From Escherichia coli (lineage in GTDB: Bacteria; Pseudomonadota; Gammaproteobacteria; Enterobacterales; Enterobacteriaceae), in assembly GCF_003334355.1 (NCBI RefSeq), contig NZ_QOWP01000068.1: 5,921 nt of DNA. One strand, 5' to 3'. This document shows positions 1-5,614 of this stretch, piece by piece. A program made the position numbers and the translations under genes. How positions within the stretch are numbered: the stretch's first letter is position 1; every line of letters begins with the position of its first letter. A model generated the notes under the pieces. It was given only the letters and a program-made list of their open reading frames with translations, was not told where the DNA came from and ran no database searches.

Positions 1-125
1 TGCAGTTGCCATGTTTTACGGCAGTGAGAGCAGAGATAGCGCTGATGTCCGGCAGTGCTTTTGCCGTTACGCACCACCCCGTCAGTAGCTGAACAGGAGG
101 GACAGCTGATAGAAACAGAAGCCAC
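1..125 (-). CDS. insA: IS1 InsA, N-terminal fragment (truncated by the window edge)
   Basis: Minus-strand GTG at 125-123, then codons translating [41 protein letters not shown]; the CxxC...CxxC zinc-finger-like pattern matches InsA as I recall it. Confidence 0.8.
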
Positions 126-157
126 TGGAGCACCTCAAAAACACCATCATACACTAA

Positions 158-180
158 ATCAGTAAGTTGGCAGCATCACC
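158..180. repeat. IS1 terminal inverted repeat (IRL), 23 bp
   Basis: atcagtaagttggcagcatcacc is the reverse complement of GGTGATGCTGCCAACTTACTGAT, and an imperfect inverted match to the repeat at 5845-5867. Confidence 0.85.
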
Positions 181-315: not shown

Positions 316-1368
316 TCATATTCTCGCCAAAACACTTTTTAATGCCTTTGCGAATTCATCCAGACTTATATTGTCAATTTTTTGCCCAACGACGACTGAC
401 TCCGAAACATCGGCCATTGCGGGCCATCGCGTTTTGTAATCAGCATAAATTGCAACAACGGGAGTATTATAGGCACTTGCCATATGTAATATTGAGGTGT
501 CAGGAGTTATTGCGATATAAGCATCTTTTATGATTGCTGCTGAACGTTTAATCGAGGGTGATAAGGATAAACGGTAGACATTATTATAACAATCCACTAA
601 TACCCTGGCTTTATCTTCCCCTTTTGGTCCATGAACGATCACTATTGGTATATCTGTTTCACTTTGAATTTTTGCTATTAGATTTTCTGCAATCGATAAT
701 GAAAATGTACGTTCCTGCGAGCTACCTTCTAAATTAAGCGCAATGTAAGATCCTAACGATCGCATTTCCTCGCGCACCTCATCGAGTACATCCTCACTTA
801 GTGGCAATTCATATATTGGCCTGACTGCTGGAAAACCCGCCTCACGCATCATAAATGCCCATGTCATGGGTACAGGAGCCCGGAGATTCTGATCCATCCG
901 GGACGCGTTCTTGCACAAAGGGGAGTAGCACTTCATGGTTAAACCAACAACCTGAAAATTCGTTTTTGCTTTTAACTGACTGATAAATATCATCGTTTTC
1001 AGGTTCTTTTTACGCATCGCCTCTATACAAAGATCCGGCGTACCGTATTGCTGTGTTATGTTCTTTGCTAAATCTTTTATTTCTTTTAATGTTGCGTGAT
1101 CCTGCATAGTCATTGTGACTAATGTTAATTTAGTCTTTTCAAGTTTAAGTGCATTAAACACTTCTAAATTAATTGTCGACGTAACAATTAAAAGATGCTT
1201 AATTTTATGCAATTCAAGCGCCCGAATAACAGGAAAGATGGCCATAGCATCGCCAATCTGGTCGGGAATATGGATAACAACAAACTCTGTTTTTTCAATA
1301 TTAAAATTATAAGCTTTATAATCGTAGTAACTAAATGCAATACGTCTCAACAATGATGCTAAAAACAT
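316..1368 (-). CDS. yeeL: Glycosyltransferase family 9 (ADP-heptose:LPS heptosyltransferase-like) protein; YeeL-like
   Basis: Single uninterrupted minus-strand frame ending in TGA at 318-316. The N-terminal region (VVIHIPDQIGDAMAIFPVIRAL) resembles the GT9 'GD' motif region, and the C-terminal region (ITPDTSILHMASAYNTPVVAIYADYKTRWP) resembles the conserved GT9 DSGpmHlAaA...P-x-valfG block. Start is uncertain: the ORF track opens at a TTG (1431); the first in-frame ATG is at 1368-1366, preceded by GGGAGG/GAGG, which gives 350 aa. Position next to shiA matches the yeeL locus. Confidence 0.75.
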   Translation of the reverse strand: MFLASLLRRIAFSYYDYKAYNFNIEKTEFVVIHIPDQIGDAMAIFPVIRALELHKIKHLLIVTSTINLEVFNALKLEKTKLTLVTMTMQDHATLKEIKDLAKNITQQYGTPDLCIEAMRKKNLKTMIFISQLKAKTNFQVVGLTMKCYSPLCKNASRMDQNLRAPVPMTWAFMMREAGFPAVRPIYELPLSEDVLDEVREEMRSLGSYIALNLEGSSQERTFSLSIAENLIAKIQSETDIPIVIVHGPKGEDKARVLVDCYNNVYRLSLSPSIKRSAAIIKDAYIAITPDTSILHMASAYNTPVVAIYADYKTRWPAMADVSESVVVGQKIDNISLDEFAKALKSVLARI

Positions 1369-1682
1369 ACCTAACCTCGCCTCCCTACTGGTTATAATGC
1401 ATTGCAGTCTATCAGACTCATCATGGCGCAATTTTGTGCATATGCGGACTTTTATGTTTCATATCTCGAACCTGTGGGTCCTCTGCTTAATCCTTAAACA
1501 ACACCAGCAACTCCTGCGCTTTCATCTTCCAGCGAATTTTTCATGTTGCCGTTAATCGGCCATAAAATCATTTGCAGATGCGCTCTGTCGAGGTAGTCTC
1601 ATAAGGTTCGTTTATAGATCGACGGCAATGTGAGTTACCTTTTCCATACTAATTATAAAAAGACAGTACAAACAGGATCATT

Positions 1683-2999
1683 ATGGACTCCACGCTCATC
1701 TCCACTCGTCCCGATGAAGGGACGCTTTCGTTAAGTCGCGCCCGACGAGCTGCGTTAGGCAGTTTCGCTGGTGCCGTCGTCGACTGGTATGATTTTTTAC
1801 TCTATGGCATTACCGCCGCACTGGTGTTTAATCGCGAGTTTTTCCCGCAAGTAAGCCCGGCGATGGGAACGCTCGCCGCATTTGCCACCTTTGGCGTCGG
1901 ATTCCTTTTCCGTCCGCTCGGCGGTGTCATTTTCGGTCACTTTGGCGACCGACTGGGACGTAAGCGCATGTTAATGCTGACCGTCTGGATGATGGGCATC
2001 GCGACAGCCTTGATTGGTATTCTTCCTTCCTTCTCGACCAGTGGGTGGTGGGCACCTATTTTACTGGTGACGCTGCGTGCCATTCAGGGATTTGCCGTCG
2101 GCGGCGAATGGGGAGGCGCGGCGTTGCTTTCCGTTGAAAGTGCACCGAAAAATAAAAAAGCCTTTTACAGTAGCGGTGTACAAGTTGGCTACGGTGTAGG
2201 TTTACTGCTTTCAACCGGACTGGTTTCATTGATCAGTATGATGACGACTGACGAACAGTTTTTAAGCTGGGGCTGGCGCATTCCTTTCCTGTTTAGCATC
2301 GTACTGGTACTGGGAGCATTGTGGGTGCGCAATGGCATGGAGGAGTCCGCGGAATTTGAACAACAGCAACATTATCAAGCTGCCGCGAAAAAACGCATCC
2401 CGGTTATCGAAGCGCTGTTACGACATCCCGGTGCTTTCCTGAAGATTATTGCGCTACGACTGTGCGAATTGCTGACGATGTACATCGTTACTGCCTTCGC
2501 ACTTAATTATTCAACCCAGAATATGGGGTTACCGCGCGAACTTTTCCTCAATATTGGTTTGCTGGTAGGTGGATTAAGCTGCCTGACAATTCCCTGTTTT
2601 GCCTGGCTTGCCGATCGTTTTGGTCGCCGCAGGGTTTATATCACAGGCGCGTTAATCGGAACGTTGAGCGCATTTCCTTTCTTTATGGCGCTTGAAGCAC
2701 AATCTATTTTCTGGATAGTTTTCTTCTCCATAATGCTGGCAAACATTGCGCATGACATGGTGGTGTGTGTGCAACAACCGATGTTTACCGAAATGTTTGG
2801 TGCCAGTTATCGCTATAGTGGCGCTGGAGTCGGTTATCAGGTTGCCAGTGTGGTTGGCGGTGGATTTACACCTTTTATTGCCGCTGCACTCATCACTTAC
2901 TTTGCCGGGAACTGGCATAGCGTCGCCATTTATTTGCTGGCTGGATGCCTGATTTCCGCAATGACCGCTTTGTTGATGAAAGACAGTCAACGCGCTTGA
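1683..2999 (+). CDS. shiA: Shikimate/dehydroshikimate transporter ShiA (major facilitator superfamily)
   Basis: 438-aa ORF with ATG at 1683 preceded by AGGA. MFS motif-A-like sequences GHFGDRLGRKRM and LADRFGRRRV are present, and the protein is hydrophobic throughout. The sequence is recognised as E. coli ShiA from memory. Confidence 0.93.
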   Translation: MDSTLISTRPDEGTLSLSRARRAALGSFAGAVVDWYDFLLYGITAALVFNREFFPQVSPAMGTLAAFATFGVGFLFRPLGGVIFGHFGDRLGRKRMLMLTVWMMGIATALIGILPSFSTSGWWAPILLVTLRAIQGFAVGGEWGGAALLSVESAPKNKKAFYSSGVQVGYGVGLLLSTGLVSLISMMTTDEQFLSWGWRIPFLFSIVLVLGALWVRNGMEESAEFEQQQHYQAAAKKRIPVIEALLRHPGAFLKIIALRLCELLTMYIVTAFALNYSTQNMGLPRELFLNIGLLVGGLSCLTIPCFAWLADRFGRRRVYITGALIGTLSAFPFFMALEAQSIFWIVFFSIMLANIAHDMVVCVQQPMFTEMFGASYRYSGAGVGYQVASVVGGGFTPFIAAALITYFAGNWHSVAIYLLAGCLISAMTALLMKDSQRA

Positions 3000-3005
3000 T
3001 AGCCT

Positions 3006-3045
3006 GGCGAAGATCATCCGATCTTCGCCTTACACTTTTGTTTCA
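3006..3045 (+). terminator. Candidate intrinsic terminator downstream of shiA
   Basis: Perfect 9-bp stem GGCGAAGAT (3006-3014) / ATCTTCGCC (3021-3029) with 6-nt loop CATCCG, followed by the T-rich tract TTACACTTTTGTTT. Begins 7 nt after the shiA stop. Confidence 0.45.
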
Positions 3046-3100
3046 CATTTCTGTGACATACTATCGGATGTGCGGTAATTGTATGGAACAGGAGACACAC

Positions 3101-4555
3101 ATGAATAATAAGGGCTCCGGTCTGACCCCAGCTCAGGCACTGGATAAACTCGACGCGCTGTATGAGCAATCTGTAGTCGCATTACGCAACGCCATTGGCA
3201 ACTATATTACAAGTGGCGAATTACCTGATGAAAACGCCCGCAAACAAGGTCTTTTTGTCTATCCATCACTGACCGTAACCTGGGACGGTAGCACAACCAA
3301 TCCCCCCAAAACGCGCGCATTTGGTCGCTTTACCCACGCAGGCAGCTACACCACCACGATTACTCGCCCTACTCTCTTTCGTTCGTATCTTAATGAACAA
3401 CTTACGTTGCTGTATCAGGATTATGGTGCGCATATCTCTGTGCAACCCTCGCAGCATGAAATCCCCTATCCTTATGTCATCGATGGCTCTGAATTGACAC
3501 TTGATCGCTCAATGAGCGCTGGGTTAACTCGCTACTTCCCGACAACAGAACTGGCGCAAATTGGCGATGAAACTGCAGACGGCATTTATCATCCAACTGA
3601 ATTCTCCCCGCTATCGCATTTTGATGCGCGCCGCGTCGATTTTTCCCTCGCACGGTTGCGCCATTATACCGGTACGCCAGTTGAACATTTTCAGCCGTTC
3701 GTCTTGTTTACCAACTACACACGTTATGTGGATGAATTCGTTCGTTGGGGATGCAGCCAGATCCTCGATCCTGATAGTCCCTACATTGCCCTTTCTTGTG
3801 CTGGCGGGAACTGGATCACCGCCGAAACCGAAGCGCCAGAAGAAGCCATTTCCGACCTTGCATGGAAAAAACACCAGATGCCAGCATGGCATTTAATTAC
3901 CGCCGATGGTCAGGGTATTACTCTGGTGAATATTGGCGTGGGACCGTCCAATGCTAAAACCATCTGCGATCATCTGGCAGTGCTACGCCCGGATGTCTGG
4001 TTGATGATTGGTCACTGTGGCGGATTACGTGAAAGTCAGGCCATTGGCGATTATGTACTTGCACACGCTTATTTACGCGATGACCACGTTCTTGATGCGG
4101 TTCTGCCGCCCGATATTCCTATTCCGAGCATTGCTGAAGTGCAACGTGCGCTTTATGACGCCACCAAGCTGGTGAGTGGCAGGCCCGGTGAGGAAGTCAA
4201 ACAGCGGCTACGTACAGGTACTGTGGTAACCACAGATGACAGGAACTGGGAATTACGTTACTCAGCTTCTGCACTTCGTTTTAACTTAAGCCGGGCCGTA
4301 GCAATTGATATGGAAAGTGCAACCATTGCCGCGCAAGGATATCGTTTCCGCGTGCCATACGGGACACTACTGTGTGTTTCAGATAAACCGTTGCATGGCG
4401 AGATTAAACTTCCCGGCCAGGCTAACCGTTTTTATGAAGGCGCTATTTCCGAACATCTGCAAATTGGCATTCGGGCGATCGATTTGCTGCGCGCAGAAGG
4501 CGACCGACTGCATTCGCGTAAATTACGAACCTTTAATGAGCCGCCGTTCCGATAA
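3101..4555 (+). CDS. amn: AMP nucleosidase (EC 3.2.2.4)
   Basis: 484-aa frame from ATG 3101 (MNNKGSGLTPAQALDKLDALYEQ...), preceded by GGAGA at 3091-3095. The C-terminal half shows nucleoside phosphorylase/hydrolase-fold features (VNIGVGPSNA, AIDMESATIAAQG). The 536-aa ORF in the track starts inside the shiA 3' end and is not accepted. Confidence 0.95.
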   Translation: MNNKGSGLTPAQALDKLDALYEQSVVALRNAIGNYITSGELPDENARKQGLFVYPSLTVTWDGSTTNPPKTRAFGRFTHAGSYTTTITRPTLFRSYLNEQLTLLYQDYGAHISVQPSQHEIPYPYVIDGSELTLDRSMSAGLTRYFPTTELAQIGDETADGIYHPTEFSPLSHFDARRVDFSLARLRHYTGTPVEHFQPFVLFTNYTRYVDEFVRWGCSQILDPDSPYIALSCAGGNWITAETEAPEEAISDLAWKKHQMPAWHLITADGQGITLVNIGVGPSNAKTICDHLAVLRPDVWLMIGHCGGLRESQAIGDYVLAHAYLRDDHVLDAVLPPDIPIPSIAEVQRALYDATKLVSGRPGEEVKQRLRTGTVVTTDDRNWELRYSASALRFNLSRAVAIDMESATIAAQGYRFRVPYGTLLCVSDKPLHGEIKLPGQANRFYEGAISEHLQIGIRAIDLLRAEGDRLHSRKLRTFNEPPFR

Positions 4556-4897: not shown

Positions 4898-5614
4898 GTG
4901 GGACGTAAATGGGCCAATATTGTTGCTAAAAAAACGGCTAAAGACGGTGCAACGTCTAAAATTTATGCAAAATTCGGTGTAGAAATCTATGCTGCTGCTA
5001 AACAAGGTGAACCCGATCCAGAATTAAACACATCTTTAAAATTCGTTATTGAACGTGCAAAGCAGGCACAAGTTCCAAAGCACGTTATTGATAAAGCAAT
5101 TGATAAAGCCAAAGGCGGCGGAGATGAAACGTTCGTGCAGGGCCGTTATGAAGGCTTTGGTCCTAATGGCTCAATGATTATCGCCGAGACATTGACTTCA
5201 AATGTTAACCGTACGATTGCTAACGTTCGCACAATTTTCAATAAAAAAGGCGGCAATATCGGAGCGGCAGGTTCTGTCAGCTATATGTTTGACAATACGG
5301 GTGTGATTGTATTTAAAGGATCAGACCCTGACCATATTTTTGAAATTTTACTTGAAGCTGAAGTTGATGTTCGTGATGTGACTGAAGAAGAAGGTAACAT
5401 TGTTATTTATACCGAACCTACTGACCTTCATAAAGGAATCGCGGCTCTAAAAGCAGCTGGAATCACTGAGTTCTCAACAACAGAATTAGAAATGATTGCG
5501 CAATCTGAAGTTGAGCTTTCCCCAGAAGATTTAGAAATCTTTGAAGGGCTTGTTGATGCCCTTGAAGATGACGACGATGTACAAAAAGTTTATCATAACG
5601 TCGCAAATCTCTAA
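4898..5614 (+). CDS. yeeN: YebC/PmpR-family protein (DUF28), YeeN
   Basis: 238-aa ORF with GTG start at 4898 preceded by GAGGAG (4882-4887). The N-terminus [27 protein letters not shown] parallels the YebC-family N-terminus (GHSKWANIKHKK...), and the tail is acidic (EDDDDVQKV). Recognised as E. coli YeeN from memory. Confidence 0.93.

Follow-up and report, generated by a model that had tools for sequence, protein, structure and literature searches.

Intact yeeL of Escherichia coli, interrupted in K-12 by one stop codon, probably encodes a divergent glycosyltransferase of family GT9

The stretch of Escherichia coli DNA analysed here (5,921 nucleotides of contig NZ_QOWP01000068.1, assembly GCF_003334355.1; hereafter the window) carries at 316..1368 an intact allele of yeeL, the orthologue of K-12 yeeL (b4497). 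The interpretation that we favour, with moderate confidence, is that intact yeeL encodes an inverting glycosyltransferase of family GT9 which decorates the lipopolysaccharide (LPS) core or a similar glycan, and which probably depends on ADP-heptose. That the product is an active glycosyltransferase of the GT9 type is held with good confidence, while the narrower proposal that it transfers heptose onto the LPS core is tentative, its chances falling a little short of even. On this interpretation the protein is a cytoplasmic and probably membrane-peripheral enzyme with a GT-B fold.

The first-pass annotation of this DNA, made from the letters alone, had described an apparently intact frame of 350-371 codons, and this was confirmed: a single frame on the minus strand is open without interruption over positions 316..1431 (371 amino acids when counted from a TTG in the open reading frame listing of the window), with an ATG start at 1368. 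The window gene and yeeL of MG1655, which is annotated as a pseudogene, are both 1053 nucleotides long and are identical at 1022 of these (97%). The order yeeJ side, yeeL, shiA, amn, yeeN is common to the window and K-12, so that position divergent from shiA, the amn and yeeN neighbours and nucleotide identity all identify the gene as the yeeL orthologue. A codon by codon comparison with MG1655 revealed 31 nucleotide differences and 13 amino acid differences, including the change at Gln235. An alignment of this kind had been proposed as a way of locating the K-12 lesion, which proved to be a single nonsense change, Q235* (CAA to TAA), without a frameshift or insertion. The description of yeeL as a pseudogene in K-12 was right, and what was called a split there is one stop codon; the word is explained by an older annotation in which the two K-12 halves were entered as yeeL_1 and yeeL_2 (PMC4390576). 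Besides Q235*, K-12 yeeL differs from the window allele at 12 amino acids, one of them the clade-invariant Ala117, and the window allele has an IS1 end downstream where the K-12 gene has the usual yeeJ 3' flank.

Membership of family GT9 was supported by profile, alignment and fold comparisons. Both of the GT9-like motifs pointed out in the first-pass annotation, IGDAMAIFPVIRAL and DTSILHMASAYNTPVVAIYADY, are present in the translation. Pfam PF01075 (Glyco_transf_9) matched about 90 residues (253-342 of the 371 amino acid form) with an i-Evalue of 1e-6, a weak but consistent match, and a precomputed PF01075 match is present for nearly all YeeL homologues. An hhalign comparison of the YeeL clade with K-12 WaaC, WaaF, WaaQ and WaaU gave a probability of 96% and an E-value of 3e-9 over residues 30-329. 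The AlphaFold (AF2) model, built with 18 homologues, had a predicted local distance difference test score (pLDDT) of 85.3 and a predicted template modelling score (pTM) of 0.85. It shows the two Rossmann-like domains of a GT-B fold and is closest to solved GT9 structures, the top Foldseek ranks being the GT9 protein 3tov, WaaF and WaaC. ADP-heptose is the donor for every functionally characterized enzyme among the nearest structural matches.

The residues expected of such an enzyme are also retained, one of them as Arg in place of Lys. It had been stated beforehand that the GT9 assignment would fall if conserved catalytic or nucleotide-sugar-binding residues were lacking, if the frame were truncated relative to intact orthologues, or if a search placed it outside GT9, and none of this was found. 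WaaC D13, K192, D261 and H266 correspond to YeeL D40, R220, D290 and H295, and YeeL is full-length relative to its orthologues. Residues G39-D40 align with WaaC G12-D13, and neither this pair nor D290, T291 and H295 varies within the YeeL clade or among 23 relatives down to 22% identity. Position 220 is invariantly Arg in the YeeL clade and either Arg or Lys in the wider family, the aligned segment being gapped. Two further features belong to the family or clade itself: an N-terminal helix with an invariant Asp16-Tyr17, which is family-specific, and three cysteines of the N-terminal domain, C114, C147 and C152, which never vary within the Enterobacterales clade and which distant relatives do not conserve. 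For the cysteine-containing loop a clade-specific role is possible, in acceptor binding, in a disulfide or as a metal site.

The intact gene is the ordinary form and is near-universal in E. coli. Bases 181-1700 of the window match the E. coli yeeJ/yeeL/shiA region at 96-99% identity, and the locus was found in 4951 of 5426 complete E. coli genomes (counted where one place covered at least 80% of window bases 1-1700). At least 1000 public contigs encode the exact 350 amino acid protein, which has been named, among other things, 'glycosyltransferase family 9 protein' (for example RefSeq WP_000477878.1) and 'ADP-heptose:LPS heptosyltransferase', and the 90% cluster of YeeL has 10,923 members. The gene, its GT9 assignment and its pseudogene status in K-12 are thus already in public annotation, with the intact gene annotated in thousands of genomes. 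One nr entry labelled 'glutathione transporter [Rattus norvegicus]' (P0075) shares 76% identity with YeeL across 88% of its length; bacterial contamination or a wrong annotation is the likely cause.

Ratios of nonsynonymous to synonymous substitution (dN/dS, Nei-Gojobori) were obtained for the window allele against other E. coli alleles, E. whittamii, strain E69 and Pseudocitrobacter, and for pairs among these, and every informative pair gave a value of 0.06-0.18. More than 100 columns of the YeeL alignment are invariant across genera. Taken together these values argue for a working protein and indicate, at the level of sequence comparison, that yeeL has been under long-term purifying selection. 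The frame is not a chance open reading frame, because it shows 97% identity and synteny with K-12, low dN/dS and identical proteins in the public record.

A horizontal origin had been suggested for yeeL on the basis of its AT-richness beside a shiA gene of about 55% GC. The direction of this contrast was correct, but the value for shiA was too high: yeeL has 38.4% GC (34.5% at third codon positions, GC3), compared with 50.9% for shiA and 50.4% for amn. The yeeN gene (40.2% GC, GC3 28.5%), the amn-yeeN spacer (31.6%) and the tail after yeeN (33.9%) are AT-rich as well, and the low GC content is therefore regional and not unique to yeeL. Homologues have approximately 38% GC in Escherichia and Hafnia, and 49-52% in Rosenbergiella and Erwinia. 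Between Escherichia species the amino acid identity of YeeL is just 67-73% and synonymous sites have reached or nearly reached saturation (dS about 2 or more), and homologues are distributed patchily over the Enterobacterales at differing loci. This pattern fits the lateral movement of a single-gene cassette, and from these sequence comparisons a horizontal origin is plausible. A recent island is not what is seen, since yeeL is near-universal in E. coli and is an old resident there.

Inactivation of yeeL has occurred repeatedly in nature, and its function is therefore dispensable. A search with a 61-mer centred on the K-12 TAA counted 765 of the 5426 complete genomes at an identity of at least 99%, and the sequence differs in 3725 others; the count is of 61-mer matches, nearly all of them exact full-length copies and a few truncated. 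Carriers include isolates from humans, mice and pigs. Insertion sequences (IS) interrupt the gene in ET474 (IS1; L001 3136-4965), HCP30S3_I2 (IS5) and 23CRST042 (IS1B), and thousands of YeeL entries from Shigella sonnei are truncated, so that with the K-12 allele the gene has been lost several times independently. Such losses would be expected if yeeL were a cryptic, silenced passenger that is unexpressed and heading for decay, as in K-12 and Shigella. The 38% GC content is typical of silenced foreign DNA, IS1 adjoins the gene in the window, and a promoter and terminator scan upstream of yeeL gave no sigma-70 consensus match and nothing above shuffled expectation, which is not evidence that a promoter is absent. 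We nevertheless consider a silent passenger unlikely, as dN/dS is low whether E. coli alleles or wider clade members are compared, more than 100 residues have stayed invariant across genera, the locus has been kept in the great majority of complete genomes, and a transposon-insertion phenotype has been recorded in sequence type 131 (ST131). In that transposon-directed insertion-site sequencing (TraDIS) study of strain EC958, insertions in yeeL (EC958_2299) were enriched in hypermotile cells with a log fold change of 7.46, a screen-level result (PMC5425062, Table 1) and the sole phenotype found in the literature. The literature found on yeeL otherwise consists of strain-engineering uses of the pseudogene locus and the old yeeL_1 annotation.

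The surroundings of yeeL and its homologues were compared for indications of function. The first-pass annotation had placed the gene outside the core-LPS waa (rfa) cluster, and this holds: yeeL lies between IS1/yeeJ and shiA, with waa located elsewhere in K-12. In most E. coli, yeeL is convergent with yeeJ at a distance of about 260 bp; yeeJ is an inverse autotransporter adhesin gene. Close homologues (53-73% identity) are single genes at unrelated places. In Erwinia and Rosenbergiella the homologue follows a major facilitator superfamily (MFS) gene; Pseudocitrobacter has it flanked by shiA and mtfA, and a divergent Escherichia lineage by hchA and mtfA. The E. albertii copy is close to yciA/ompW, and that of another genus lies in the interval separating maeB from the eut operon. 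An MFS partner was considered, given the Erwinia/Rosenbergiella gene and shiA in E. coli and Pseudocitrobacter, but by length and Pfam signature these look like different MFS families, and the adjacency was treated as coincidence.

An exhaustive profile search recovered full-length YeeL relatives at 22-37% identity, and these are located in glycan-assembly clusters. One (P0108) has as neighbours a second GT9 gene, GT2 and GT1 genes, two Wzy_C genes, WecG and Bac_transf. Another (P0137; L015 1955-4288) is a metagenomic 777 amino acid fusion of Wzy_C to a YeeL-like GT9 domain, and stands beside a fusion of GT4 to polysaccharide deacetylase. Wzy_C is a Pfam family of O-antigen ligase/polymerase-type membrane domains. 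A third (P0117) overlaps a gene for a GT8/GT8C enzyme, the type to which WaaJ/WaaO of the LPS core belong, and a fourth (P0132) is accompanied by a GT4-deacetylase similar to that of P0137, acetyltransferases and a second GT9 gene; a search started from this AT-rich distant member returned no informatively named relative. In Litchfieldella the homologue is flanked by GT4 genes and a Kdo-kinase-like gene. A 607 amino acid neighbour there was suspected of being a deacetylase-GT4 fusion like those next to P0132 and P0137, but Pfam gives GT4 domains alone. These clusters are the sole functional association that was found, and they point to the LPS core or related envelope glycans.

Based on these comparisons, a mechanism resembling that of the LPS heptosyltransferases can be proposed for YeeL. 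The C-terminal Rossmann domain would bind the nucleotide-sugar, the likeliest donor being ADP-L-glycero-D-manno-heptose; ADP-heptose is already made by E. coli for the core. Contacts to the diphosphate would come from Arg220 and Thr291/Ser292, and contacts to the sugar from Asp290 and His295. The N-terminal domain, which carries clade-invariant basic residues and the cysteine-containing loop, would bind the acceptor, and Asp40 would deprotonate an acceptor hydroxyl for direct displacement, making the enzyme an inverting one. The likeliest acceptor would be the LPS core oligosaccharide or a similar envelope glycan, and the product an accessory and possibly non-stoichiometric decoration. In the Enterobacterales clade yeeL is a stand-alone accessory gene, dispensable and often lost. 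A role in anti-phage defence was also considered, and no PADLOC match was obtained.

Several observations weigh against a heptosyltransferase-like enzyme of the LPS core, and are gathered here. The sequence signal for GT9 is weak. When the search proposed in the first-pass annotation against PF01075 and WaaC/WaaF/WaaQ was carried out, the Pfam match was obtained, but all WaaC/F/Q/RfaQ models scored far below their curated cut-offs (37.6 bits against 185.3 for TIGR02193, 19.4 against 134.6 for TIGR02195, 16.8 against 170.2 for TIGR02201 and 15.1 against 467 for PRK10422). Judged by these scores, YeeL is not an orthologue of WaaC, WaaF or WaaQ. Sequence searches of the PDB gave only non-significant matches to WaaC/WaaF (phmmer E 1.6, profile E 0.08), which is why a fold search was needed. 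WaaC Lys192, invariant in K-12 WaaC, WaaF, WaaQ and WaaU, is Arg in YeeL, so that the charge is kept and the identity changed, and the acceptor-side loop 141-158 is the sole region modelled at a pLDDT below 50. No neighbour was conserved among the six contexts examined in the close clade (over 50% identity), and guilt by association comes solely from the relatives at 22-37% identity. To these are added the promoter scan and the recurrent inactivation described above, and the fact that we infer donor and acceptor alike.

Some of the same observations would suit an active GT9-fold enzyme with a different chemistry, using another donor such as UDP-N-acetylglucosamine (UDP-GlcNAc), the other activity listed for GT9 in CAZy, or an acceptor other than LPS, for instance enterobacterial common antigen, capsule or a small molecule. 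The subfamily is very distant from WaaC/F/Q, Lys192 is replaced, the Asp16-Tyr17 helix is specific to the family and the cysteine-containing loop to the close Enterobacterales clade, and the clusters of distant relatives are rich in non-heptose glycosyltransferases. On the other hand, in the alignment the sugar-binding DT..H motif and the pocket as a whole match the residues with which WaaC binds heptose, and use of ADP-heptose is common to all of the structurally closest characterized enzymes, which makes a different chemistry improbable. About equally improbable, if anything slightly more so, is that YeeL founds an uncharacterised GT9 subfamily adding heptose or another sugar to a new acceptor in E. 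coli, the candidates being a conditional, H-NS-silenced decoration of the LPS core, or glycosylation of a surface protein. If this were true, the resulting change of the surface could explain the hypermotility of ST131 yeeL insertions, and could explain why K-12 and Shigella lineages have repeatedly discarded the gene.

Finally, a TibC/Aah-like adhesin heptosyltransferase was weighed, one that would act in the cytoplasm on YeeJ, or on a different surface adhesin, before its substrate is exported. The idea came from the convergent position of yeeL next to yeeJ in most E. coli and from the TibC/Aah enzymes, which share the heptosyltransferase fold and are encoded beside their autotransporter substrates. 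It was rejected as the favoured interpretation and is very unlikely, since PDB sequence searches gave no TibC match even at E<=10, the fold similarity to TibC is weaker, homologues outside E. coli (Erwinia, Rosenbergiella, Pseudocitrobacter, E. albertii and others) lack an adjoining autotransporter gene, strain 19AR0646 keeps an intact yeeL next to a yeeJ that has degraded, and the YeeJ literature searched made no mention of glycosylation.

The coordinates of the features are collected in Table 1. The yeeL coordinates agree with the coding sequence called by the prokaryotic genome annotation pipeline (PGAP) in related E. coli loci (L003, L101 and L103). The ATG at 1368 is the PGAP start in other strains, and in the alignment a Met at the equivalent position starts all homologues; from this comparison the 21-codon extension to the TTG is probably an untranslated leader, and a TTG start is unlikely. 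The intergenic region between yeeL and shiA presumably holds the promoters of both genes. For amn, the open reading frame list contains a 536 amino acid frame at 2945-4555 that overlaps the end of shiA; the annotated gene is a portion of this frame, and the 52 codons upstream of its start are probably untranslated. No tRNA was found in the window, which is consistent with K-12, where asnW lies about 450 bp past yeeN.

Table 1. Positions of yeeL, its candidate functional residues and neighbouring features in the window
Feature	Position	Strand	Remarks
yeeL coding sequence	316..1368	minus	350 codons plus TGA stop at 318..316; divergent GT9, GT-B fold
DTSILH, codons 290-295	484..501	minus	aligns with WaaC D261-T-G-L-S-H266, sugar and diphosphate site
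Codon 235	664..666	minus	CAA (Gln) in window; TAA nonsense in K-12 yeeL
Arg220	709..711	minus	aligns with WaaC phosphate-binding Lys192 (hhalign)
Cysteine region, codons 114-158	895-1029		loop MKCYSPxCKxASRMDQ invariant in Enterobacterales clade
Asp40 (GAT), IGDAM motif	1249..1251	minus	aligns with WaaC catalytic base Asp13 (hhalign)
Upstream in-frame extension, 21 codons from TTG	1369..1431	minus	homologue starts and PGAP use ATG
GAGG, Shine-Dalgarno	1375..1378	minus	6 nt upstream of yeeL ATG; read from sequence
Second GGGAGG	1380..1385	minus	upstream of yeeL ATG; read from sequence
yeeL-shiA divergent intergenic region	1369..1682	none	41.7% GC
shiA	1683..2999	divergent from yeeL	as in MG1655
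amn	3101..4555		484 aa; as in MG1655
yeeN	4898..5614		as in MG1655
IS1 left end	1..180	minus	inverted repeat and insA start, reading away from yeeL

The IS1 end lies 135 bp beyond the stop codon of yeeL, at a place occupied in other strains by the yeeJ-yeeL spacer. Bases 1-180 have thousands of IS1 matches on chromosomes and plasmids, and chromosomal homology resumes at 181/184. In two relatives that lack this IS1 (L019 and L003) the equivalent of the junction is located about 126 bp downstream of the yeeJ stop, and IS1 has therefore inserted inside the convergent yeeJ-yeeL spacer. The first of these relatives (JARKOR010000252.1), a contig of 23.9 kb, consists of E. coli DNA (yeeJ-yeeL-shiA) and was deposited under the name 'MAG: Candidatus Nanosynbacter sp.'. 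It is identical to the window in every segment compared, with a tblastn match of 100%, and its yeeL protein differs by R119S; the contig is almost certainly a mis-binned contaminant.

As a discovery yeeL matters little, since the identical protein has been deposited many times. What emerges is that purifying selection acts on an orphan glycosyltransferase gene conserved in most E. coli, and that the model strain K-12 is without a working copy, a possible reason for its neglect. Of practical use are the K-12 lesion, now pinned to one TAA (codon 235) that can be reverted; the residues D40, R220, D290 and H295 as catalytic candidates; and a pointer to LPS-core chemistry, given by LPS-core clusters among distant relatives only.

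Among known systems, the heptosyltransferases WaaC (HepI), WaaF (HepII), WaaQ and WaaU (CAZy GT9, PF01075) show 12-16% identity to YeeL, which differs from them in its extra N-terminal helix (D16-Y17), the Arg in place of Lys192, and the cysteine loop at 141-158, and in being encoded by a single gene outside the waa cluster. The GT9 protein of Veillonella parvula (PDB 3tov, from structural genomics) is 14-16% identical; it is itself uncharacterised, and so no function can be transferred from it to YeeL. The bacterial autotransporter heptosyltransferases (BAHT) TibC and Aah have in common with YeeL the heptosyltransferase-like GT-B fold and, in E. coli, a position adjoining an adhesin gene, whereas neither sequence similarity or close structural similarity to TibC nor a conserved autotransporter linkage was found for YeeL. 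BAHT proteins are characterized by an iron-finger cysteine motif and a dodecameric assembly; the invariant cysteines of the YeeL clade, C114, C147 and C152, lie in the N-terminal domain and are not conserved in the wider family. Chloroplast PnsB1 (NDF1; PDB 7wff_a and 9grx_1) is a GT9-like structural subunit of the NDH complex; YeeL keeps the catalytic Asp and the donor motif invariantly, which argues that it is an enzyme and not a scaffold of the PnsB1 kind.

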